Shown here one piece after another: positions 17,577 through 46,098 of a stretch of 64,000 nt of DNA (positions within the stretch are counted from its first letter, which is position 1; every line of letters begins with the position of its first letter). The notes beneath the pieces are model-generated. The model was given only the letters and a program-made list of their open reading frames with translations, was not told the origin of the DNA and made no database searches. This DNA comes from an uncultured Gemmatimonadales bacterium (GTDB lineage Bacteria > Gemmatimonadota > Gemmatimonadetes > Gemmatimonadales > GWC2-71-9), in contig CAVSQW010000011.1 of assembly GCA_963730185.1 (NCBI GenBank), positions 27,291 to 91,290 of the forward strand, read 5' to 3'. Made by a program: the position numbers and the translations under genes.

Positions 17577-19396
17577 GCCACTTCCTCCGTGGGGCGGAAT
17601 TGAAGATCGTGAAGCCGGCGATAAAGACCGCGGTCGGCCACGAGCACCGCGTGGGGGCCGCGCTCCACGATCCGACCCCGGTCGATCACCAGAATTTCAT
17701 CGGCATGGCGCACCGTCGCCAGTCGGTGCGCGACCACCAGCACGGTCCGATCCCGCATCAGCCGGTCGATCGCCTCCTGCACCTGACGTTCCGACTCGGG
17801 ATCGAGCGCGCTGGTGGCCTCGTCGAGAATCAGGATCGGCGGGTCGCGCAGCAGCGCCCGCGCGATGGCGATCCGTTGGCGCTGACCGCCCGAGAGCCGG
17901 GTCCCGCGCTCGCCCAGCAAAGTGTCGAACCCGAGCGGCAGGCCGCGGATGAATTCGTCCGCGTTGGCGGCCCGCGCCGCCTGCTCCACCTGGGCCGCCG
18001 TCGCCTCGGGCCGAGCGTACGCGATGTTGGCGAAGACGGTGTCGTTCAGGATCACCGTGTCCTGGCTCACGAGCCCCATCAGGTGGCGCACCGAGGCCCG
18101 GGAGACCTCTGGGAGCGGCGTGCCGTCGAGCCGGATCTGGCCGGAGGTGGGGTCGTAAAAGCGGGGGACCAGGTCGAGGAGCGTGGTCTTGCCCGCCCCG
18201 GACGGCCCAACGATCGCGACGATCTTGCCCTTGGGCACCGTAAACGAGAGTTCCTCGACCACCGGGCGCCCGGGCTCGTACTCGAACGACACGTCGTCGA
18301 ACACCAGGTCGCGCTCGAACCGGGCGGCCGGGAGCCGCTCGTCGTCGCCCTCGACCGACGGCCGGTCGAGCCAGTGGAACACCCGCTCGGCGCTGCCCAG
18401 CGCGATCGCCATGGAGGCCGGGAACTGGGAGAGCGACTTGATGGGCGACATCATCTTGAGCGCCACCGCCAGGAAGACGATCGTCACCTCGGGACCGAGC
18501 ACGACACCGCTGATGGTCGGATTGGCGGCCGCCCAGATGAGCAGGATCACCACCAACCCGCCGAACACCTCGCTCACCGGACTGGTGAGCGAGGCGAACC
18601 GCTGGGTTCGGATCGCCCATTTCCGGTAGAGGTCGGCCTGATTGGTGAACTTGGCGACCTCCTGCGCCTCGCCGCCGTAGCCTCGGATCAGCTTGATCGC
18701 CCCGAGCCGCTCGGTGGCGGTGGCGGTGAGGCGGCCGCGCTCGTCGGCCCATTCCCGGGCATGCCCGCGGAGGCGCTTCAGGAGCTGCCGGATCCCGAGC
18801 ACCAGCACGGGGGCCGAGGCCAGGGTGATCAGGGTGAGCCGCCCGGAGATGCTGGCCAGGATCACCAGCGAGCTCAGGATCAGGATCAGATTCTCGAAAA
18901 AGGCCGCCAGCGCCGCGGAGACCGCCTGCTTGCTCTGGTCGGCATCGGCGATGATCCCGGCGATCAGGTCTCCCTGGCGGGTGCTTTGAAAGAAGGCCAG
19001 GTCGATCGTGAGCAGATGGCGGTAGAGCGCGATCCGGAGATCGCGGACCAGCCCCTCCTGCACCGCGACGGTCAGCTGGTTCTTGGCGTAAACGAAGATG
19101 TTCTTGAGCACCAGGCCGATCAGCAGCACCACCACCAGCCGGGCCGCGGCCGCCCCCGCCGACCGGCCGGCCACCAGCGGCGACAGCACCGTGTGGATCA
19201 CCGCCTCGAGCTTGGTGCCGCCGGTGCCCGCCAGGGCCCCGGCCGTTCCGAAGAGGGTCTTGAGCAGCGGGACCAGCACCACCACCGTCACGCCGTCGAG
19301 AATCGACGCGAAGAACGCCGAGACCAGGCCGAGCACGAAGAGTCCGGTGTAGGGGCGGGCCGTCGCGAGGAGACGGCGCCCGACGGAGCGGGGCAT
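17573..19396 (-). CDS. msbA: MsbA-like ABC transporter (fused permease/ATPase)
   Basis: TM domain plus GPSGAGKTT, LSGGQRQRIAIARA, ILDEATSALD, VAHRL; located in an LPS cluster. Confidence 0.8.
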   Translation of the reverse strand: MPRSVGRRLLATARPYTGLFVLGLVSAFFASILDGVTVVVLVPLLKTLFGTAGALAGTGGTKLEAVIHTVLSPLVAGRSAGAAAARLVVVLLIGLVLKNIFVYAKNQLTVAVQEGLVRDLRIALYRHLLTIDLAFFQSTRQGDLIAGIIADADQSKQAVSAALAAFFENLILILSSLVILASISGRLTLITLASAPVLVLGIRQLLKRLRGHAREWADERGRLTATATERLGAIKLIRGYGGEAQEVAKFTNQADLYRKWAIRTQRFASLTSPVSEVFGGLVVILLIWAAANPTISGVVLGPEVTIVFLAVALKMMSPIKSLSQFPASMAIALGSAERVFHWLDRPSVEGDDERLPAARFERDLVFDDVSFEYEPGRPVVEELSFTVPKGKIVAIVGPSGAGKTTLLDLVPRFYDPTSGQIRLDGTPLPEVSRASVRHLMGLVSQDTVILNDTVFANIAYARPEATAAQVEQAARAANADEFIRGLPLGFDTLLGERGTRLSGGQRQRIAIARALLRDPPILILDEATSALDPESERQVQEAIDRLMRDRTVLVVAHRLATVRHADEILVIDRGRIVERGPHAVLVADRGLYRRLHDLQFRPTEEVA

Positions 19397-36851: not shown

Positions 36852-37015
36852 CCGAGGCCTACTCCACCACCGATCACCACCGCGACGACCCGACCGGGCT
36901 GATCCGCCTCTCCCGGCACGGGCGGGCCGAGTTGGCCGAGCTGCTGGAAGGTGCCTGGCGGCGGATCGCCTCGAAGCGACTCGTGGCTCGGCCAGATCGC
37001 CCCGACCCGGCCTAA
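36852..37015 (+). pseudogene. C-terminal remnant resembling an MmcQ/YjbR-family protein
   Basis: EAYSTTDHHRDDPTGLIRLSRHGRAELAELLEGAWRRIASKRLVA, with no start codon or N-terminal half. Confidence 0.5.
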
Positions 37016-37815
37016 CGACCGGCCGGCACCGGCGGACGGCGCCCCGGACGGGCGGCGAATCTCTCCGGCTGCCGGCGGAGGCTGGGCGGCAAGGCGACCA
37101 GCGTCGGCTCGACCCGCTCGACCGGCGCCACCAGCCCGGCGTGCCGGAGCGCAGCCTCCATCACCCACTCCCAGCCGAGCCGCGCCCGGAACCGGCGGAC
37201 GCTCACCCCCAGATACCGACGGGTCCACGATCGGAAGGTGCGGACGCCCACCCCGGCCCGCCAGGCGAGGACGTCGACCGATGCGTCGTCGATCGTCGCC
37301 GCCACCCGGGCCAGAGTCCCCACCGCCCGCCAGCAGTGCGCCGTGAGCGGTCCGAAACGACGGAGCCGATCCCGGATGGTCCGCCCGGGGATCGCCTCGC
37401 TGATCGGCACGTCGACCGGGCGGGCCATCAGCAACGCAAGCTCCGCGCGGATCTCGGCTCGCCCCGTTCGGCGAACCACGTAATCGGCCAGGTAGCCGCT
37501 CCCGGGGACCACCCGGGACCGGACCGCCGTCGTGACCCGATCGGTAAGCTGCCGGACCGCAATCGGGCCCGGGGTAAAGCACAGCTGCCCGGGAAGCGAA
37601 TGAATGGCGCTCAGAACGGCCGGGTCCGCGGTGCCGGCCGTGGCGACCAAGCAGAGCGTGCACCAGGGAGCCCGCCTGAGGAGCTGCGCCGACTCCCCCC
37701 CGATCGCCTCGACCGACTCGGCCTCGACCACCGCGATCGTTCCCAAGGGCGGAAGATCGTGGATGAGGCCATCGACCACGTGGTAGGGCGGGGTCAGCAA
37801 TCGGATCCGAGGCAT
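37012..37815 (-). CDS. Putative AraC-like HTH regulator, divergent from the lasso cluster
   Basis: Two HTH-like segments (IPGRTIRDRLRRFG; SVDVLAWRAGVGVRTFRSWTRRYLG) after a degenerate alpha/beta N-terminus. Confidence 0.5.
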   Translation of the reverse strand: MPRIRLLTPPYHVVDGLIHDLPPLGTIAVVEAESVEAIGGESAQLLRRAPWCTLCLVATAGTADPAVLSAIHSLPGQLCFTPGPIAVRQLTDRVTTAVRSRVVPGSGYLADYVVRRTGRAEIRAELALLMARPVDVPISEAIPGRTIRDRLRRFGPLTAHCWRAVGTLARVAATIDDASVDVLAWRAGVGVRTFRSWTRRYLGVSVRRFRARLGWEWVMEAALRHAGLVAPVERVEPTLVALPPSLRRQPERFAARPGRRPPVPAGR

Positions 37816-38124
37816 CGATTTGAGCGGGGTCCCGTGGATCGCAAGGCTCAGGCGTTTGGCGAGGATTGGCGTCGGATCCTGCGTCCCAGCCAGCGAGCGG
37901 AGAGGGTACGACTCGAGGGCCCTGCCGTCAAGGCGTAAGTCACGACAGCATCACACGATAGGGCCATTCGGCCCTGGTCGAAAAACGACCGGCGACAAAG
38001 GGAAGGAAACGGCAGGAACTCGCCCGAACGTGTCCTTTCGGCCGGGTCGTGCGTTTCGCAGGTTCAACCCACTCGAAGGGCGTCGGATCTTCGACCCAGT
38101 GGGGACTGAGGGGGGACAGCCGCG

Positions 38125-38436
38125 ATGCGATTTCCTTGGAGCAACACCCGAACCACGACGGTCCCGGACGCCCGCACCCGCTGGCAGCCCACCACCGACG
38201 TGACCAGCGCGGTCCACGGCGATCGGACCGTGCTGATGGATCTCCGGTCGGAACAGTTCTTCACCCTCGACGACGTCGGCGCGCGGATTTGGGAGAGCCT
38301 CGGTCGCACGGCGACGGTGGACGAGATCACCGCGTCCCTGGTCCAGATCTACGACGCCCCGGCCGCGGAGGTCCGCCGCGACGTCGAAGCCTTCGTCGCG
38401 GACCTGAGCCGCGACGGCCTGATCTGCGAGGCCTGA
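38125..38436 (+). CDS. Lasso peptide B1 protein (PqqD/RRE domain)
   Basis: VLMDLRSEQFFTLDDVGARIWESL...TVDEITASLVQIYDAPAAEVRRDVEAFVADLSRDGLI, the PqqD pattern. Confidence 0.92.
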   Translation: MRFPWSNTRTTTVPDARTRWQPTTDVTSAVHGDRTVLMDLRSEQFFTLDDVGARIWESLGRTATVDEITASLVQIYDAPAAEVRRDVEAFVADLSRDGLICEA

Positions 38437-38437
38437 G

Positions 38438-38827
38438 GTGAGTTCACGCGGTCCCGGTCCGGTGGTCGCCGTCGCGACCCTCGCCCTGACTCGGTCGAGC
38501 CTCCGCTTCCTCGGGTTCCGGCGGACCCTCCGTCTGGTGCGTTGGGCCGCCGGCCCGGCGACGAGGCCCCGGCGCGGCACGGTCGAGCGCGGCGCCCGCT
38601 CGGTCGCGGTGGCGGCGGCGTTCTTTCCCGGCCGAGCCGTCTGCCTGGAACAGTCCCTGGCGCTGTATCTCCTCCTCCGCCGCCGCGGGCATCCAGCCGT
38701 GCTCAAGATCGGGGTCCAGCCGTATCCCTTCGAGGCCCATGCCTGGGTGGAGATCGACGGCCGCCCCGTATTCGAGAACGAGGATGCGCTGAGCAAGTAC
38801 GTGCCCTTCCCGGGAGCGTTCGCGTGA
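38438..38827 (+). CDS. Lasso peptide B2 leader peptidase (transglutaminase-like)
   Basis: CLEQSLALYLLLRRRG...LKIGV...FEAHAWVEIDG, containing the catalytic Cys and His motifs. Confidence 0.93.
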   Translation: MSSRGPGPVVAVATLALTRSSLRFLGFRRTLRLVRWAAGPATRPRRGTVERGARSVAVAAAFFPGRAVCLEQSLALYLLLRRRGHPAVLKIGVQPYPFEAHAWVEIDGRPVFENEDALSKYVPFPGAFA

Positions 38828-40710
38828 ACCCGTTCGTCTGCGCCATCGACCTCCGGGGCGCCCCGATCGGCCTCTCGGCTCTGGATCCGGCGCTCCCCGG
38901 CCTGACCCGGGGCGACGGACGCCCCGAGCTCGTCCTGAACGGCTGCTGGGGAGGCGCCTGGGCGCCGTCGCCCCTTGGCCGTCCGCTGGCCACCCGACGG
39001 CAGGGCACCATCGCGATCGGTACCGCCCGGCTCTCCAATCGCGAGGCGCTGGCCGGTCTGCCGGCCGACCGGCTGGCCCCGCTCACCGACCTCGACCTGG
39101 TCGTCGAACGGTATCTCCGCCGTGGTCCCGAGGCCGTCGCGGATCTGGTCGGCGACTTCGCGTTCGTCCTCTGGGACGAGCAACAGGCCCTGCTCCTCGC
39201 GGCCCGCGACGCCCTCGGCGTCAAGCCGCTCTACTGGCAGCAGCGGGGCAGCACGCTGCTGGTGGCCTCCCACGTCGAGTGCCTGGATCAGGGCAGCTAC
39301 GACCGGAGCTACATAACCCGGTTCGCCATGGCCCAGGTCGGGCCCGCCGACGCGACGGTGTACACCAACGTCAAGCGGGTCGCCCCCGGCTCCTACCTCC
39401 TGGCACGGGGTCCCAAGGTGTCGACCGAGCAGTACTGGTCGCCCTGGACCTTCCGGGCGGGATCGGCCGGCGACGATGTCGAGGCCACGGTGGCCGAGTT
39501 CCGGGGCCGGTTCGACGAGGCAGTTCAGGCCCAGCTCGACGATCGACGCGACACCTGGGTGCTCCTCTCGGGCGGGCTCGATTCGTCAGCGGTGGTGGGC
39601 GCCGCGAGCCGGCTGGCCGAGCGGGACTTGGTTCGGCCGCTGGCGGGCACGGTGACCGTGGTCGACTCGCTCGCCGACGGTGACGAGACCCGTTACTCCG
39701 ACGCGGTGGCCCGGCGGTGGGACCTCCGGAACGAGCGGATCCACGACTTCTGGGCCTGGCAGCCCGACCCGGACGCCACCGTGGCACTGGCCGAGCCGCG
39801 CCACTTCCTCCCGTTCTTCGCCCGGGACCGCGCCCTTTGCGGTGCGGTGCGGAGCCAGGGCGGCCGCGTGCTCCTCAGCGGCTACGGCTCAGACCAGTAT
39901 CTGAGTGGCAGCTTCGACTATCTCGCCGACCTGGTCCGGACCCGGCGGACCCGGGAAGCCATGGCCGAACTGACCCGGCTGGCCGTTGCGACTCGACGCT
40001 CATTCTGGGGGCTGGGAATGACCCACGCGATCGCGCCGATTGCCCCGGGGTGGCTGGCCCGGCGGATCCAGGGCCCGGCCCAGCGGCCCGCCTGGGTGCT
40101 GGGCGACGTGCCTCCGGTGGTGTCCCCCGAGGACCTCCGCCGGCTCCGCGAGGAGCACGGGGTCTACGGGAGCCAGGTAGCGGCCGAGGTGGCCTGCACC
40201 GACCTGCTGCTCGAGCGAGGCGTATTCGAGCAGGGGCTCGAGATGCGCTACCCGTTCCTGCACCGGCCGCTGGTGGAGCTGGCACTCCAGCTCCCCGTGA
40301 ACCTCCGGATGCGCCCCGGCGCCAAGAAGTGGATTCTGCGGGAATCGTTGCGAGATGTCCTACCCGAGGCGATCCGCACCCGGCCGGGCAAAGGCGGGAT
40401 CGACGGCCGAGTCCTCTGGTCGCTCCACCACGAGCGCCGGCTGCTCCGCCGGCTGATCCTCGACTCCCATCTCGCCGACCTGGGCTGCGTCGACCGACAG
40501 GCGCTGGCCGAAGCCTTCGATCGGGCCGCCGCGGGACAGACGGGTGACGTCACCCGGCTCTTCTTCACCCTTTCTCTCGAAACCTGGCTGGCCGTCCGTT
40601 CCGGGTGGTGGGCGGCCAACGCTTCACGATTGCAGTCCCGGAGTACTCCGTCCTTCTCGTCGCAGTCAACTCAAAAGGAGCAGCACTATGTCGAAGCTTC
40701 AGTACACTAA
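38824..40710 (+). CDS. Lasso peptide cyclase (asparagine synthetase-like, C protein)
   Basis: GTGA overlap with B2; GDFAFVLWD, ARDALGVKPLY, LSGGLDSS ATP loop, SGYGSDQ, RYPFLHRPLVE, RPGKG; no N-terminal Cys1. Confidence 0.9.
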   Translation: MNPFVCAIDLRGAPIGLSALDPALPGLTRGDGRPELVLNGCWGGAWAPSPLGRPLATRRQGTIAIGTARLSNREALAGLPADRLAPLTDLDLVVERYLRRGPEAVADLVGDFAFVLWDEQQALLLAARDALGVKPLYWQQRGSTLLVASHVECLDQGSYDRSYITRFAMAQVGPADATVYTNVKRVAPGSYLLARGPKVSTEQYWSPWTFRAGSAGDDVEATVAEFRGRFDEAVQAQLDDRRDTWVLLSGGLDSSAVVGAASRLAERDLVRPLAGTVTVVDSLADGDETRYSDAVARRWDLRNERIHDFWAWQPDPDATVALAEPRHFLPFFARDRALCGAVRSQGGRVLLSGYGSDQYLSGSFDYLADLVRTRRTREAMAELTRLAVATRRSFWGLGMTHAIAPIAPGWLARRIQGPAQRPAWVLGDVPPVVSPEDLRRLREEHGVYGSQVAAEVACTDLLLERGVFEQGLEMRYPFLHRPLVELALQLPVNLRMRPGAKKWILRESLRDVLPEAIRTRPGKGGIDGRVLWSLHHERRLLRRLILDSHLADLGCVDRQALAEAFDRAAAGQTGDVTRLFFTLSLETWLAVRSGWWAANASRLQSRSTPSFSSQSTQKEQHYVEASVH

Positions 40711-40801
40711 GCCGAGCGTCACCAAGGTCGGCCCCGTGGTCGTCAAGACCGAGGGCTACTGGACCGGGTTCAACATGGAGCTCATGAGCCTCCGTCCGTA
40801 A
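40688..40801 (+). CDS. Lasso peptide precursor (A): 22-aa leader + core GYWTGFNMELMSLRP
   Basis: AAAAGGAG RBS; leader YTKPSVTKVG (YxxP..G), Thr at -2, core Gly1 with Glu9 acceptor. Confidence 0.9.
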   Translation: MSKLQYTKPSVTKVGPVVVKTEGYWTGFNMELMSLRP

Positions 40802-40841
40802 GCTGACCAAGGTTCGGGGGCGCACCAGCGCCCGCGGCCAC

Positions 40842-40887
40842 GACCCCCGTCCGCCTCCCAAAATGGCGGCCGGGGGTCCGTCGTTTG
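40842..40887 (+). terminator. GC-rich stem-loop after the lasso precursor
   Basis: GACCCCCGTCCGCC-loop-GGCGGCCGGGGGTC followed by only a short T tract (CGTCGTTT). Confidence 0.5.
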
Positions 40888-40944
40888 CATACCCGGTTGG
40901 CTCAGGAGATACCCTGAACCGATCGATTGTCCTAAATTCGAACA

Positions 40945-43545
40945 GTGGAATCCACCTCCCCACCCGACGCGGGGCCCGGGCCCCCTCCCGCCCTGGCTAT
41001 TCCTGAGGCGCCAACCGGCCGTTCCTGGCTGACCTACTGGTGGCGCCACGACGGCTGGGTCGCGGCGCTGGCCGTCGTGGTCGTGGCGATCGTCGAGTTG
41101 GTCCCGCGTCCTCTTGGTCGGCCGGGGCAGCGTCCCGGCCTGTTGGTGTACCTCGCGCCCGTCCTGACCGCGTTCGCCATCCTGATTTGCTGGTTGCGGG
41201 CCGCCCGCGCCGCCAAGGGCGATCGGGCCATCCGGCTGGTGACCCGCACCGGCGTGGTGACCACGGCGGCCGCCGCGGTCGGGGTGCTGCTGCTTCAGTC
41301 GCAGAACGTCGCGCTCGGCCTCGGTCGGCAGCCGGTCGGTGTGCTGATCCTGATCAGTTCGATCCTGATCCTCCTCGAAGGTCCGCTCTGGGTCGTCGCC
41401 ATCCTAGTGTGGCCTCCCCGCGAGCGGCAGCGTGAAACCGGCTGGTACGTCGCGTTGGACGTGGCGATCATGATCCTCGCGACCAGTGCCGTATTCTGGT
41501 ATGCCCAGGTCCGGATTACCCCAGACCCGACCAACGCACCGCCCAACATCCATGCCGTCGTCGTGATCTGGGCGATCATGCTGCTGGGCCTCAGCGTGGC
41601 CGTCCTCCGAGGCTCGATTGCCCGATACGAACTGGCATTCCGCCTCTTGGTCGGCGCGCTGGTGGCCACCTTTTTCGTCAACTTCGCCCTGACCGTCTTC
41701 AACGCTGCCACGGCACTGGAACTCGTCAATACGCCCGTCCTGGTAGCCGGCGTCGCCCTCCGCATCGCCGGCGCCGAGGCCATCCGGCTCCGCCTTCCAC
41801 TCCCGGGCGCCCCCGGCGAGGGCACCCACCGGAGCCCGCTCCCGTGGGTCGCCGTGCTGGCCATCGGCGTGCTCGCCTTCCGCCTGGCCATGACGGAGCA
41901 CGACAGCGGCCTCGGCCCGGTGGTGCTGATCACCCTCTGCATCACCGTCCTGCTCCTCCTTCGCCAGTCGGTGGTGATGCGCCAGAACGCCCGGCTCCTG
42001 GCCGAGCGGGCCCAGCACGAGGCCGACGCCCGGATCGCGGCCCTGGTCCGGCACACGTCCGACGTGATCCTGATCGCCGATCAGTCGCTCCGGGTCCGCT
42101 TCGCGTCACCGTCGGCGGAGGGACTCTGGGCCGGTGATCCGGCCCGGATCCTCGGGCTCGAGGTCGGCGAGCTGGTGGATCCCCTGCAGCGGGTCGAGGT
42201 CGAGCGAGCGCTCGCCGAGCGGCTGACCCGGCCCGGGCAGAGTGCCACCACCCGCTGGCGGATGCTCGGCGTCGAAGGCGACTGGCGGAAGATCGAAGCC
42301 GTCATCACCAACCTGTTGCATGAGCCGTCGGTCGGCGGGGTGGTGTTGACGCTCCGCGACCAGACCGAGCGCGCCGACCTCGAGGAACAGCTTCAGCAGG
42401 CCCAGAAGATGGAGGCGATCGGCCAGCTGGCCGGCGGGATCGCCCATGACTTCAACAACCTGCTCACGACCGTGTTGGGGCACAGCGAGCTCGGGCTCGA
42501 CTCCCTCGAAGCCGGTCATCCGGTCCGGGCTGATTTCGAGCAGATCAAGCGGGCGGCCGAGCTGGCCGCGGCGCTCACCAAGCAGCTGCTCGCCTTCAGC
42601 CGGAAGCAGCTGATCGAGCCCACCGCCATCGACGTGGCCGAGTCCATCCCCAAGATCGCCGGGTTGCTCAAGCGGCTGATCGAGGAGCGGATCCGGACGG
42701 TCATCGAGGTCGCGCCCGACGTGGGGATGGTCCAGATGGACCCGTCCCAGCTCGAGCAGGTCATCATCAACCTGGCCATCAACGCCCGCGACGCGATGCC
42801 GCACGGCGGCTCGCTCACCATCCGAGCCCGCCGCGAACAGGTGACGAGCGAGCTCACCGGCGTCGTGCCGGTCGCGCCGGGCGACTATCTGGTCATCGAC
42901 GTCGCCGATACCGGCGTCGGGATCGACGCCGCCACCCAGGCCCGGATCTTCGAGCCCTTCTTCACGACCAAGCCCCCCGGCCGGGGCACCGGCCTCGGGT
43001 TGGCGAGCGTCTATGGCGTGGTGAACCAGAACAAGGGCGGCCTCCGGCTGAAGAGCGCACTCGGCCAGGGCAGCACCTTCTCGGTGTACCTCCCGGCCCT
43101 CAAGGAAGGCGCCGATCTCCCGGCCGTCCCGACCGAGCCGCGACGCCCCGGCATGGCCGATGCGCTGGTGCTCCTGGTCGAGGACGAACCCTGGCTCCGC
43201 GACATCGCCTACAAGGTCCTGACCCGCGAAGGGTACCGGGTCATGGTGGCGGGCGACGCCGCAGAGGCCCTGGTCCAGGCCGCCCGCTCCACTGAGGCCA
43301 TCGACCTCCTGCTCACCGACGTGATCATGCCCGGGATGAGCGGCCCCAGCCTGGCCGCCCGGCTCCGAAGCGACCAGCCCAGCCTCCGAGTGCTCTTCAT
43401 GTCGGGCTACGTCGCCGCCGACCTCGGGGGCGAGCTGGGGCCCGCCGACCAGCTGCTCCGGAAGCCGTTTACACCTTACGTGATGCTCGAGGCCGTCCGG
43501 GCCACCCTCGACGCACCGACTCTGCCGGCCCCGCCCACGCCTTGA
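40945..43545 (+). CDS. Membrane hybrid sensor histidine kinase (multi-TM, PAS, HisKA, HATPase, REC)
   Basis: About 9 hydrophobic segments; [50 protein letters not shown]-terminal LLVEDE...[10 protein letters not shown]...KPF. Confidence 0.93.
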
Positions 43546-43629: not shown

Positions 43630-46098
43630 TCAGGAGGTCCGGAGCGCCTCCATCGGATCGACCCGGCTGGCCCGGCGGGCCGGGATCGCGCTCGCCACCA
43701 ACGACACGGCCAGCACCACGACCGCCACCGCCCCGAACACCAGCGGGTCGGTCGGGCTGGTTCCATGGAGCAGGTCTCGGATCAGCCCGGTCGCGAACCG
43801 GGCCCCGACGATCCCGAGCCCGAGGCCGATCGCCGTGAGGCGGACCGCGTCGCGGAGCACCATCCGACGGATCTCGGCCTGGCTCGCCCCTAACGCGCCG
43901 CGAATCCCGATCTCCCGGGTCCGCCGCCCGACGGCATACGCCAGCACGCCATGCACGCCAATCAGCGCCAGCAGGAACCCAACGACGGCGAAGCCCACGA
44001 TCTGCAACGTGGTCACCCGGACCCCGCCCAGCTGCTCCGCCACCCGGTCGGCCACCAGGCTGGCGAATACCGGTCGGTCGGGCACCGACCGGACCAGGAG
44101 GTCGCGCATCGGCTTGACCAATCCGCTCGGCGACCCCGCCGCGCGCACGAAGAAACTCGGAAAGGCCGACGGCGCCTGCTCGTAGGGCCGGTACACCTCG
44201 GGGCCGTCGTCCGCCAGAAGGAGGCTCCCCTGCGCCCCCTTGTGATCGTGGACCACCCCCACGACGGCGATCTCGGCCGGCCGGCCGGGCGCGGTGTCCA
44301 CCCGGAAGGTCTGGCCCACGGCGTCCTGACCCGGCCACCACCGCCGGGCCGCCCATTGGTTCACGATCGCGACCGGCGGGGTCCGCTCCAGGTCTCGGTC
44401 GGTGAACTCGCGGCCCTGGAGCACGGTGACGCCCAGGGTGGCGAAGAAACCCGGACTGACCGAAAACTCGACCGGCGGCACCAATGGGGGCGGCAACGGT
44501 CCCGCCCTCCCGGTCGGGGTAACTTCGGGCGATTTGCCTCGGGGGCCGAGCGGCACCGGCGCCTCGAGCGCCACGGACCGGGCGCCCGGCAACTCGCCCA
44601 GGTCGGCCAGGATCTGGCGGGTGACCGGGACATAAGTCTCCCTGACCCGCCAGGGATGAGGATAGCTCGGCGTCCCTTCGAGCAGCGTTGCCGGGCGGAA
44701 GCCCAGGTCGAGCTCCGACAGCCGGAGTGCGGTCCGGGTCATGAGCCCGGCCCCCACCAGCAGCACCACCGCCGAGGCGATCTGGGCGACCACGAAGGCC
44801 TGCTGCATCCGGTTCCCGAGTCGGCCACCACCCGACGAGGGCGCCCCCTCGCGCAGCACCAAGGCCACCTCGGCCCGGGCCGCCATCCGTCCCGGCAGCA
44901 GGCTCAACCCCACTCCGACGATCACCGCCAACACCGCCGTGAAGGCCACCACCGGCCCGTCGAGCCGGTATTCCATCCCGGCCGGCCGGATCGAGTCGAG
45001 CACGGTGAGCGACTGCAGCACGTTGAGGAACCATGACGCGAAGAGAAGACCGCCGACGAACGCCAAGGCCACCACGAAGGCGTACTGAACCAGCAGGTCG
45101 CCCGCCAAGCGGAGGGGCCGGGCGCCGAGCGCCGCGCGCACCCCGAACTCGCGTTGCTGATCGAGCGCCCGGACCAGAACCAGGTTGGCGAGATTGGCGC
45201 AGGCGATCAGCAGAATGCAGGCGACGATCGCGGCCAGGATCAGGTCGTGGGCCCGGGTCGAGGTGGTGTACCGGTCGCGAAGCGGCGCGGCCTCGAGGCG
45301 GAACCGGGGCGCGTTCGGCCCCGCGCTGGCCGGCACCGGCACCTCGATCGTGGCGAGCTCGGCCCGGAGCTGCTCGACGGTCCGCCCCGGCGCCAAGCGG
45401 CCGATCGCGGTGATCGACCGGATCGACGGCCGGGTGCTGGGATCGAGGGTCGGGACCGCCGGAAGCCAGAAGCGGTTCCCCACCTCGTGATGGAACCCGG
45501 GCGGCATCACCCCCACCACGACGTAGTGGCTGTCGCTCAGCTTGATGGTCTGACCGATGATGGCCGGATCACCGCCGAGCTCGTCCTTCCAGAGGTCGTG
45601 ACTGATCAGCACTACCAGCGGCACGTTGAGCCGATCGTCTTCCGCGGTGAAGAGCCGACCGAGCTCCGGTGTGACACCAAGCATCGAGAAGAGGCTCGGG
45701 GTGGCCACCCCGCCGAAGACGACGATCGGCTCGCCGCCCTTGTTCAGGGCTTTACCGCCCGAGGTATAGGCGGCCACCTGGTCCATGGTTTGGAAGTGAT
45801 GGACCGCGATCAGATCGGCGTAGGCCTCGTAGGCGACGTCGCAGGCGGAGCGGCACCCGGAGGGCGGCACCGCACCCGCGCCGTCGTCGATCGGAACCTC
45901 GCTCAAGAGCACCAACCGGTCGCCGTCCTTGAACGGGAGGGCCCGGAAGCGGACCGCGTCGACCACCGCGAACGCCGCCGCCGCGGCGCCCAGGGCAAGG
46001 GCCAGCGAGAGGACGGCGGTGACCAGGAAGCCGGGACTCCGGACCAGCGTTCGGATCCCGATCCGGGCATCACGGATGAACGAGGAGAACGATGCCAT
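43630..46098 (-). CDS. ADOP-type duplicated ABC permease
   Basis: RDARIGIRTLVRSPGF, LIACANLANL, REFGVRAALGA, RTREIGIRGALGA, PARRASRVDPMEALR. Confidence 0.9.
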   Translation of the reverse strand: MASFSSFIRDARIGIRTLVRSPGFLVTAVLSLALALGAAAAAFAVVDAVRFRALPFKDGDRLVLLSEVPIDDGAGAVPPSGCRSACDVAYEAYADLIAVHHFQTMDQVAAYTSGGKALNKGGEPIVVFGGVATPSLFSMLGVTPELGRLFTAEDDRLNVPLVVLISHDLWKDELGGDPAIIGQTIKLSDSHYVVVGVMPPGFHHEVGNRFWLPAVPTLDPSTRPSIRSITAIGRLAPGRTVEQLRAELATIEVPVPASAGPNAPRFRLEAAPLRDRYTTSTRAHDLILAAIVACILLIACANLANLVLVRALDQQREFGVRAALGARPLRLAGDLLVQYAFVVALAFVGGLLFASWFLNVLQSLTVLDSIRPAGMEYRLDGPVVAFTAVLAVIVGVGLSLLPGRMAARAEVALVLREGAPSSGGGRLGNRMQQAFVVAQIASAVVLLVGAGLMTRTALRLSELDLGFRPATLLEGTPSYPHPWRVRETYVPVTRQILADLGELPGARSVALEAPVPLGPRGKSPEVTPTGRAGPLPPPLVPPVEFSVSPGFFATLGVTVLQGREFTDRDLERTPPVAIVNQWAARRWWPGQDAVGQTFRVDTAPGRPAEIAVVGVVHDHKGAQGSLLLADDGPEVYRPYEQAPSAFPSFFVRAAGSPSGLVKPMRDLLVRSVPDRPVFASLVADRVAEQLGGVRVTTLQIVGFAVVGFLLALIGVHGVLAYAVGRRTREIGIRGALGASQAEIRRMVLRDAVRLTAIGLGLGIVGARFATGLIRDLLHGTSPTDPLVFGAVAVVVLAVSLVASAIPARRASRVDPMEALRTS

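Follow-up and report, generated by a model that had tools for sequence, protein, structure and literature searches.

A predicted class II lasso peptide cluster lies beside a ten-helix membrane sensor kinase across a genus of Gemmatimonadales

Lasso peptide precursors are recognised by a YxxP motif and a threonine at position -2 of the leader and by an Asp or Glu at core positions 7-9 (PMC6784204, section 5), and their products belong to class II when they carry no disulfide bond (PMC13352647, in the part available). In class II clusters of the fusilassin/fuscanodin type, B1 and B2 are split, and a stand-alone RiPP (ribosomally synthesised and post-translationally modified peptide) recognition element and a B2 protein accompany an AsnB-like cyclase (PMC6784204, section 5; PMC8498205, in part). 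A locus sharing these three components was analysed in a window of 64,000 nucleotides (the whole stretch of DNA considered here) from contig CAVSQW010000011.1 of an uncultured Gemmatimonadales bacterium. It also shares with the fusilassin/fuscanodin type the YxxP leader, Thr-2, Gly1, a Glu acceptor at position 9 and the lack of a disulfide. In contrast to that type, the genes stand here in the order B1-B2-C-A, in single copy, lineage-wide and with no ABC (ATP-binding cassette) exporter at the locus; a fixed Glu9-x4-Arg14 frame holds a ring that varies freely, and a constant ten-helix hybrid kinase adjoins the cluster. Judged from its sequence, the locus is very probably a class II lasso peptide cluster with a predicted product of 15 residues.

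The precursor gene A (40688..40801, plus strand) encodes 37 residues, divided into a leader of 22 (40688-40753) and a core of 15 (40754-40798). Its start lies within the last 23 nucleotides of C, 7 nucleotides behind the ribosome-binding site AAAAGGAG (40673..40680, plus strand), and a GGAG-type site was found upstream of all 18 genome-derived precursors. In the mechanical list of open reading frames (ORFs) A appears only as the tail of an 85-residue ORF; this longer frame, from the GTG at 40544, was rejected as the true gene since the homologues begin at the ATG after the ribosome-binding site. The G+C content of A reaches 0.89 at third codon positions, compared with 0.47 at first and 0.39 at second positions. 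The lasso leader model NF033521 gave A 15.4 bits, short of its cut-off of 19, and one homologue carries the NCBI label of a lasso leader-containing protein.

The precursor follows the cyclase in every same-genus locus examined that extends past the cyclase end. The precursor profile found one copy in 17 of the 22 genomes of the genus; the misses are two genomes with clusters cut by contig ends (G002, G015) and three without a cyclase orthologue (G013, G014, G018). Cyclase orthologues (45-54% identity) are present in 17 of the 21 other genomes of the genus, with a C-terminal fragment in an eighteenth (G009), and a full orthologue also occurs in G023, which gave the sole strong precursor match outside the genus among 400 genomes of the family. 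A metagenome scan returned only one close contig. In the preliminary description, a peptide not conserved beside homologous clusters was to count against the prediction; the opposite was found, as the precursor follows the cyclase across the loci of the genus. By its sequence, A is a real precursor and not a chance ORF.

The precursor set was extended with 65 database matches to 73 full precursors, one N-terminally truncated match being dropped. These represent 73 distinct cores and 68 distinct rings. Leader residues Tyr-17, Pro-14, Gly-8 and Thr-2 and core residues Gly1, Glu9 and Arg14 are invariant in all 73, although some of this invariance was selected for because the search profile includes the invariant positions; the same positions are invariant in the 18 genome-derived precursors, which were found by their position after the cyclase and their leader pattern. 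Ring positions 3-8 vary freely, with an entropy of 2.3-3.3 bits over the 73 cores. Glu stands at core position 9 in 73/73; Asp or Glu stands at position 8 in none and at position 7 in six. The boundary between leader and core proposed earlier (YxxP leader, Thr-2, Gly1) and the proposed Gly1-Glu9 ring are thus kept throughout the family, and the class II assignment agrees with a window core that has no Cys and hence no disulfide. The hand-calculated mass of about 1782.8 Da was recomputed as 1782.822 for the cyclised core (monoisotopic; computed [M+2H]2+ 892.418). Position 13 is occupied by Lys (34 cores), Leu (13), Arg (9), Tyr (5), Ser (3) and others. Of the two plugs suggested before, Arg14 therefore gains support from its invariance and probably acts as the bulky residue that locks the tail beneath the ring, while Leu13 was rejected as a required plug because position 13 varies and includes Ser. 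Seventeen of the 73 cores stop at residue 15; the remainder carry short, mostly Gly-rich tails.

All four ORFs were found on the plus strand at their expected positions in the order given above. B1 (38125..38436; 103 residues) is a stand-alone RiPP recognition element of the PqqD family (PF05402, 69 bits with a cut-off of 23.4, E 4.6e-19) and the single PqqD match in the whole genome; in the lasso-specific NCBIfam PqqD models it stayed at 49.5 bits, below a cut-off of 70 that is lineage-specific. B2 (38438..38827; 129 residues) is a transglutaminase-like lasso leader peptidase in which Cys69 and His101 are present. It matched PF13471, passed the lasso B2 model NF033537 (100.8 bits, cut-off 33) and occurs in single copy in the genome, and its closest database records come from Gemmatimonadota or Gemmatimonadales genomes. 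C (38824..40710; 628 residues), with a GTG start that overlaps the stop of B2, is the predicted ATP-dependent lasso cyclase. It matched Asn_synthase (144 bits) and retains the SGGLDS ATP-binding motif. Its best NCBIfam model is the lasso cyclase NF033535 with 210.3 bits, ahead of the AsnB model with 165; both scores lie under the cut-offs, that of NF033535 (525 bits, curated) being a model threshold and not a biochemical definition.

No Met-Cys-Gly start was found in C or in any cyclase-family member with an N-terminus, and family members carry Tyr, Phe or Leu at the position of the Glu in the SGEGSD motif of 1CT9. In a midpoint-rooted FastTree, which holds no characterised lasso cyclase, the family groups with Longimicrobium-type lasso cyclases and apart from the two Met-Cys-Gly AsnB-like paralogues of the genome; the grouping with true asparagine synthetases that would have spoken against the prediction was not seen. 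Model scores, motifs, the missing Met-Cys-Gly start and tree position together rule out a true asparagine synthetase: by these features C is an AsnB-like cyclase and not a glutamine-dependent asparagine synthetase. The preliminary description had read in this region a recognition element, a B2 peptidase, an AsnB-like cyclase without Cys1 and a 37-residue precursor; all four were recovered at the positions it gave, and the hidden Markov models it proposed (PqqD for B1, PF13471 for B2, Asn_synthase for C) all matched. Its term "complete" holds for B1-B2-C-A, but the conserved unit extends further, to a downstream sensor kinase and an upstream operator.

The Longimicrobium-type clusters (L025-L027, L244) contain the nearest cyclases outside the family (44-45% identity). 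Their cores mostly place an Arg five residues past the acceptor Glu (Glu8...Arg13), like Glu9...Arg14 here. They differ in an eight-residue ring and in 2-6 precursors per cluster; in L026, unlike in the family of the window, an ABC exporter separates the groups of precursors, and L025-L027 have neither the ten-helix kinase nor the operator. A related B1-B2-C set in G027 (L047) is accompanied by a precursor-like ORF with a core that would start with Asp, an unusual first residue, and would have Glu at position 8.

Directly downstream of A lies the gene of a hybrid histidine kinase, the candidate receptor (40945..43545, plus strand; 866 residues), with a ten-helix membrane sensor and PAS, HisKA, HATPase and receiver domains. 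The N-terminal 350 residues form the sensor domain, modelled with ten membrane helices (pLDDT, the predicted local distance difference test, 84). The catalytic His, the N and G boxes and the Asp/Lys motifs of the receiver are conserved. The sensor domain matched no Pfam family and its fold gave no Foldseek match at E<=0.001; by these comparisons, neither its sequence nor its fold links it to AgrC or ComP. Likeness to seven-helix receptors or rhodopsins (best VIA-align Z 9.9, root-mean-square deviation 4.6, 190 aligned residues) was too low for helical bundles and was not used. The lasso-linked sensors form a distinct branch of their family, with 4 representatives at E<=1e-30. The domain is present at one locus per genome in G023 and in 17 of the 21 same-genus genomes, a count that includes G015 (diverged, receiver-less and located elsewhere), G002 (at a contig end) and G005 (split by an insertion).

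The kinase gene stands directly after the precursor in 17 of the 18 precursor-bearing loci. Around this lasso-kinase unit the upstream neighbours differ and the downstream contexts are of at least five kinds, both outer boundaries having been reshuffled several times. The junction between precursor and kinase is kept across genomes with RpoB identity down to 0.82-0.86 and cyclase identity near 0.5. For comparison, 20 other B2-bearing loci of the class were picked from the top of a class-wide B2 search (110 of 401 genomes matched, including the unpublished G394). None of the 20 has the ten-helix sensor domain, two have some kinase core nearby and 14 gave an ABC ATPase match. Other Gemmatimonadetes B2 loci (L231, L245, L246, L247, L248, L249) were seen to carry precursors of different types, and some of these loci contain two cyclase-like genes. 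As far as its genes tell, the unit of the window combines a lineage-wide lasso operon that lacks an exporter with a membrane sensor kinase in fixed linkage, and its signature resembles that of peptide signalling.

Peptide and sensor are also the variable parts of the unit. Ring positions 3-8 have a mean pairwise identity of 0.18, compared with 0.34 for the sensor, 0.54 for the cyclase, 0.71 for both kinase core and leader, and 0.86 for RpoB. In the close pairs G006-G021 and G003-G010, the sensors are 0.76-0.77 identical and the kinase cores 0.95-0.98. The outward half of the sensor has an identity of 0.24 versus 0.40 for the inward half, an assignment supported by 17 versus 6 Lys/Arg. The cyclase, kinase and RpoB trees (quick IQ-TREE and FastTree runs, the badly extracted or long-branched RpoB rows of G002 and G022 being dropped from the second) recover the same close sister pairs. 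Given kinase core distance, core distance correlates with sensor distance with a partial r of 0.48-0.49 in 13 genomes that are kin and not independent; the partial kinases of G001, G005 and G023 were dropped from this set, and G009 and G019 lack one partner. The combination of variable peptide and sensor with a conserved kinase core is thus seen here; it is not unique to peptide-pheromone systems. The same variation pattern is described for AgrC/AgrD (PMC5007282, in the part available).

Upstream of B1, an operator-like palindrome GGCRR-N4-YYGCC (38011..38024) was found in 14/14 loci with full upstream DNA, while a Markov control gave a mean of 0.22 and a maximum of 2, the motif having been defined on the same loci. 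It also stands before B1 in G001, G008 and the remnant of G013, none of which was used to define it. This conserved putative operator points to regulated expression of the lasso operon. A sigma-54 promoter was rejected for the palindrome on spacing (GG-N9-GC), as the sigma-54 consensus requires N10. A matrix scan of the own genome returned the lasso site and one other, at about 325320 (minus strand) of contig C12 (G000, L167), before a region with a 233-residue probably secreted protein and a Ser/Thr kinase; with only this second site, beside unrelated genes, a wider operator regulon was rejected. A second palindrome in the promoter region, TAGGGCC-N4-GGCCCT (37959..37976), is less conserved and occurs in 6/14 genome loci with full upstream DNA and in one metagenome contig. 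After the stop of A, two stem-loops (40811..40878, plus strand; -53.9 kcal/mol; z -3.1, 1 of 200 shuffles equally stable) are predicted to end or stabilise the transcript; they have no U-tail match and are absent from the listing of the terminator scan. Before the kinase, a -10-like hexamer TA[ACG]ATT (40933..40938, plus strand) is a predicted promoter element, found in 18/18 spacers downstream of the precursor compared with 0.011 expected per 220 nucleotides, the pattern having been defined on these spacers. The hairpins and the hexamer together suggest that the kinase probably has its own promoter. Rfam gave no match and the sigma-70 scan no site.

An optional part of the locus is a divergent regulator-like gene (37012..37815, minus strand; 267 residues), with a predicted receiver-like N-terminal fold and an AraC-type DNA-binding domain. 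Its ESM Atlas neighbours carry HTH_18/HTH_AraC and its model has a pLDDT of 82. VIA-align scores were middling (Z 6-7.6 to AraC for residues 114-213, Z 5-6.6 to receivers for residues 2-104), and Foldseek gave no match at E<=0.001. The gene adjoins the lasso cluster in G000, G023, G017 and, broken, G010, and is inferred to do so in G019. The majority of the remaining genomes in the genus carry a 33-38% identical copy at another locus; such copies were found, with the query used, only in the genus and in G023, and the operator was not found at these distant loci. At this second conserved locus (L102-L109) the AraC-like copies usually lie downstream of an apparent ABC substrate-binding protein gene.

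By established lasso biochemistry (PMC6784204, section 5; PMC8498205 and PMC13381572, each in part), B1 would bind the YxxP leader, B2 would cleave after Thr-Glu, and C would adenylate Glu9 and link it with the amine of Gly1 around the tail. Judged by its conservation, Arg14 would then lock below the ring. As the locus has no ABC exporter, export would require a transporter encoded elsewhere in the genome. One ABC exporter match lies 19 kb upstream of the cluster (about 17612-19039, minus strand), and a MacB/FtsX-type permease (43630-46098, minus strand), not a conserved neighbour, converges on the kinase; either could serve export. The exported peptide may bind the outward half of the ten-helix sensor, by analogy with agr (PMC5007282, in part), and thereby switch His-to-Asp phosphotransfer within the hybrid kinase. 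The relay would possibly end at the B1 operator via the receiver-like/AraC protein, closing a feedback loop. A possible relay partner is seen in three related genomes, where the lasso-linked kinase is followed by a second PAS kinase and a receiver protein (L036:13625-17409; also L035 and L037).

Because the kinase adjoins the cluster genus-wide and the ring is species-variable, the lasso peptide may carry signals between cells, with a receptor of its own, and not be just an antibiotic. That it is sensed by the adjacent membrane kinase, the pair forming a species-variable self-signal, is the favoured reading, by analogy a serious possibility that falls short of probable. The fuller picture of a genus-wide, species-specific lasso pheromone, in which a Gly1-Glu9/Arg14 knot with a hypervariable ring is read by the ten-helix kinase and feeds back on the operator, is put forward tentatively. 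The peptide could also be antibacterial. ComQXPA and NisK are autoinduction systems of similar layout, and nisin both kills and induces through NisK. The host of the window is presumably diderm. In agr-type systems (AgrBDCA; PMC5007282, in the part available) the gene of a modified peptide is likewise grouped with genes for its maturation and with a multi-helix membrane kinase. Here the kinase is a hybrid of PAS, HisKA and receiver domains, and there is no linked canonical response regulator and no linked exporter; because both linked partners are missing, the unit was not filed as agr-type. Sviceucin and siamycin I are lasso peptides that inhibit the foreign kinases FsrC and VanS, for which the evidence implicates the cytoplasmic ATPase domain (PMC11872507, in part), and morphosins have been proposed as signals, speculatively and with no identified receptor (PMC11371967, in part); the candidate target here is, unlike in these cases, the producer's own linked membrane sensor.

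Several observations weigh against a self-signal, and they are given here together with the explanations that compete with it. Neither an exporter nor a conventional response regulator is conserved at the lasso locus, and the ABC ATPase query that matched 14 of the 20 comparison loci gave, as the one query used, no match at 19 family loci of 3.4-19 kb each. An adjacent AraC-like gene is limited to 4-5 loci, and its product shows no conserved phospho-acceptor Asp in an alignment read by eye. Agreement among the trees is only moderate in their deeper branches (patristic Spearman 0.53-0.62). Core distance follows cyclase distance equally well (partial r 0.49-0.50 in the same 13 genomes), and the core-sensor correlation therefore does not single out the sensor. 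Fast divergence is moreover common in membrane domains and in RiPP cores generally.

The kinase may instead regulate the unit in response to another cue (envelope state, a nutrient or another organism) and switch production on, the peptide acting on other cells or inside the producer. This is somewhat unlikely, and the same kinase linkage and operator data fit it. Domains of the sensor family are common on signalling proteins without a known link to a peptide: its 453 representatives occur on GGDEF/EAL proteins and other kinases, and distant homologues lie away from any lasso gene in G028, G033 and G036. Regulatory genes are reported to be frequent beside lasso clusters (PMC11371967, in part). 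L243 in G149, a more distant cluster of another family, has two-component genes on both sides, a pair of sensor kinase and response regulator upstream and, downstream, a soluble hybrid kinase with no membrane domain together with an ECF (extracytoplasmic function)-sigma-like gene. What such a cue leaves unexplained is the variation of the outward sensor half between species with kinase cores that are 95-98% identical.

Unlikely, too, is an ordinary lasso cluster with the kinase as an unrelated neighbour, vertically inherited from one ancestral arrangement. All precursor loci come from one genus and one genome of a second genus, and because these genomes are kin, the adjacency of precursor and kinase may be a single inherited event. 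The kinase, with its own apparent promoter behind a hairpin, need not be co-regulated with the lasso genes. In G005 (L035:6450-7760) an insertion of about 1.3 kb, which looks like an insertion sequence, splits the kinase while the lasso genes are intact; at the eighteenth locus, in G019, no kinase match was found in the 340 nucleotides after the precursor or elsewhere in the 87% complete assembly; and the sensor kinase homologue of G015 stands alone, away from lasso genes, diverged and without a receiver. The RpoB tree places G013 within the carriers. At its locus, 8.5 kb of other DNA (L228:8356-16909, C7) stands in place of B2, C, A and almost the entire kinase, flanked by the remnants, namely the operator, B1 in truncated form and the final 38 residues of the kinase. 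This insert comprises three genes and a low-G+C, ORF-poor stretch that, judged by eye, looks like a ribosomal RNA operon. The joint loss is a single event, possibly an assembly artefact, and so gives no independent support for a functional tie. The inherited neighbour is countered by a junction retained at the RpoB and cyclase distances given above while the outer boundaries were reshuffled.

That the product is not a threaded lasso (branched-cyclic, trimmed or otherwise modified), the cluster silent or the cyclase another AsnB-like amide ligase is quite improbable: cyclase, leader and B1 do score under the lasso-specific NCBIfam cut-offs, the cyclase tree holds no characterised lasso cyclase, the nine-residue ring is large and 17/73 cores have a single residue after Arg14, but B2 scores above its cut-off, no variation is seen in leader Tyr, Pro, Gly and Thr or in Gly1 and Glu9 of the core, the cyclase lacks a Met-Cys-Gly start, and capistruin, also with a nine-residue ring, is listed with its ring between residues 14 and 15, residue 15 being Arg (PMC12214591, in the available part with Table 1).

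The exact core was not found in the sources searched: a full-text literature search with the window core and three family motifs gave no match, a term search did not find the core in LassoPred supplement file 3 (4,750 rows, 31 from Gemmatimonadota), and the readable LassoESM supplement files held no match. The earlier assessment as probably new is upheld for the core itself but not for the family, of which LassoPred lists two predictions. These entries from Gemmatimonadota (MBM4187649.1 and MBX3145954.1; supplement file 3, PMC12214591) have the same leader, the same Gly1/Glu9/Arg14 frame and a predicted nine-residue ring; their ring sequences differ, their name and family cells are empty, and the rows give no genomic context. 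In its chemistry, the predicted peptide is a new member of the class II lassos, in a family already touched by automated prediction. Lasso clusters have been counted in 29 marine Gemmatimonadota genomes (PMC11316326, in part). The producer-side role of most lasso peptides is poorly known (PMC11371967, in the part available). Among the best-ranked matches listed from the open literature on lasso peptides in signalling, no lasso with a cognate receptor kinase was found, and in the available part of a 2026 review (PMC13352647) a term search found neither 'Gemmatimon' nor 'quorum'.

If the kinase is only a neighbour, the locus represents an ordinary new lasso family. Regardless of any receptor role, a cyclase family that takes 68 rings on a Glu9/Arg14 frame would be a useful and probably tolerant scaffold for engineering. 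The 17 natural peptide-kinase pairs make the signalling role directly testable without culturing the organism. If it holds true, the lasso peptide would have a cognate receptor of its own, a case for which no report was found in the literature searched, and the orphan sensor family, which is widespread and counts hundreds of members, would gain its first ligand. It would also mean agr-like peptide communication in an abundant and mostly uncultured phylum.

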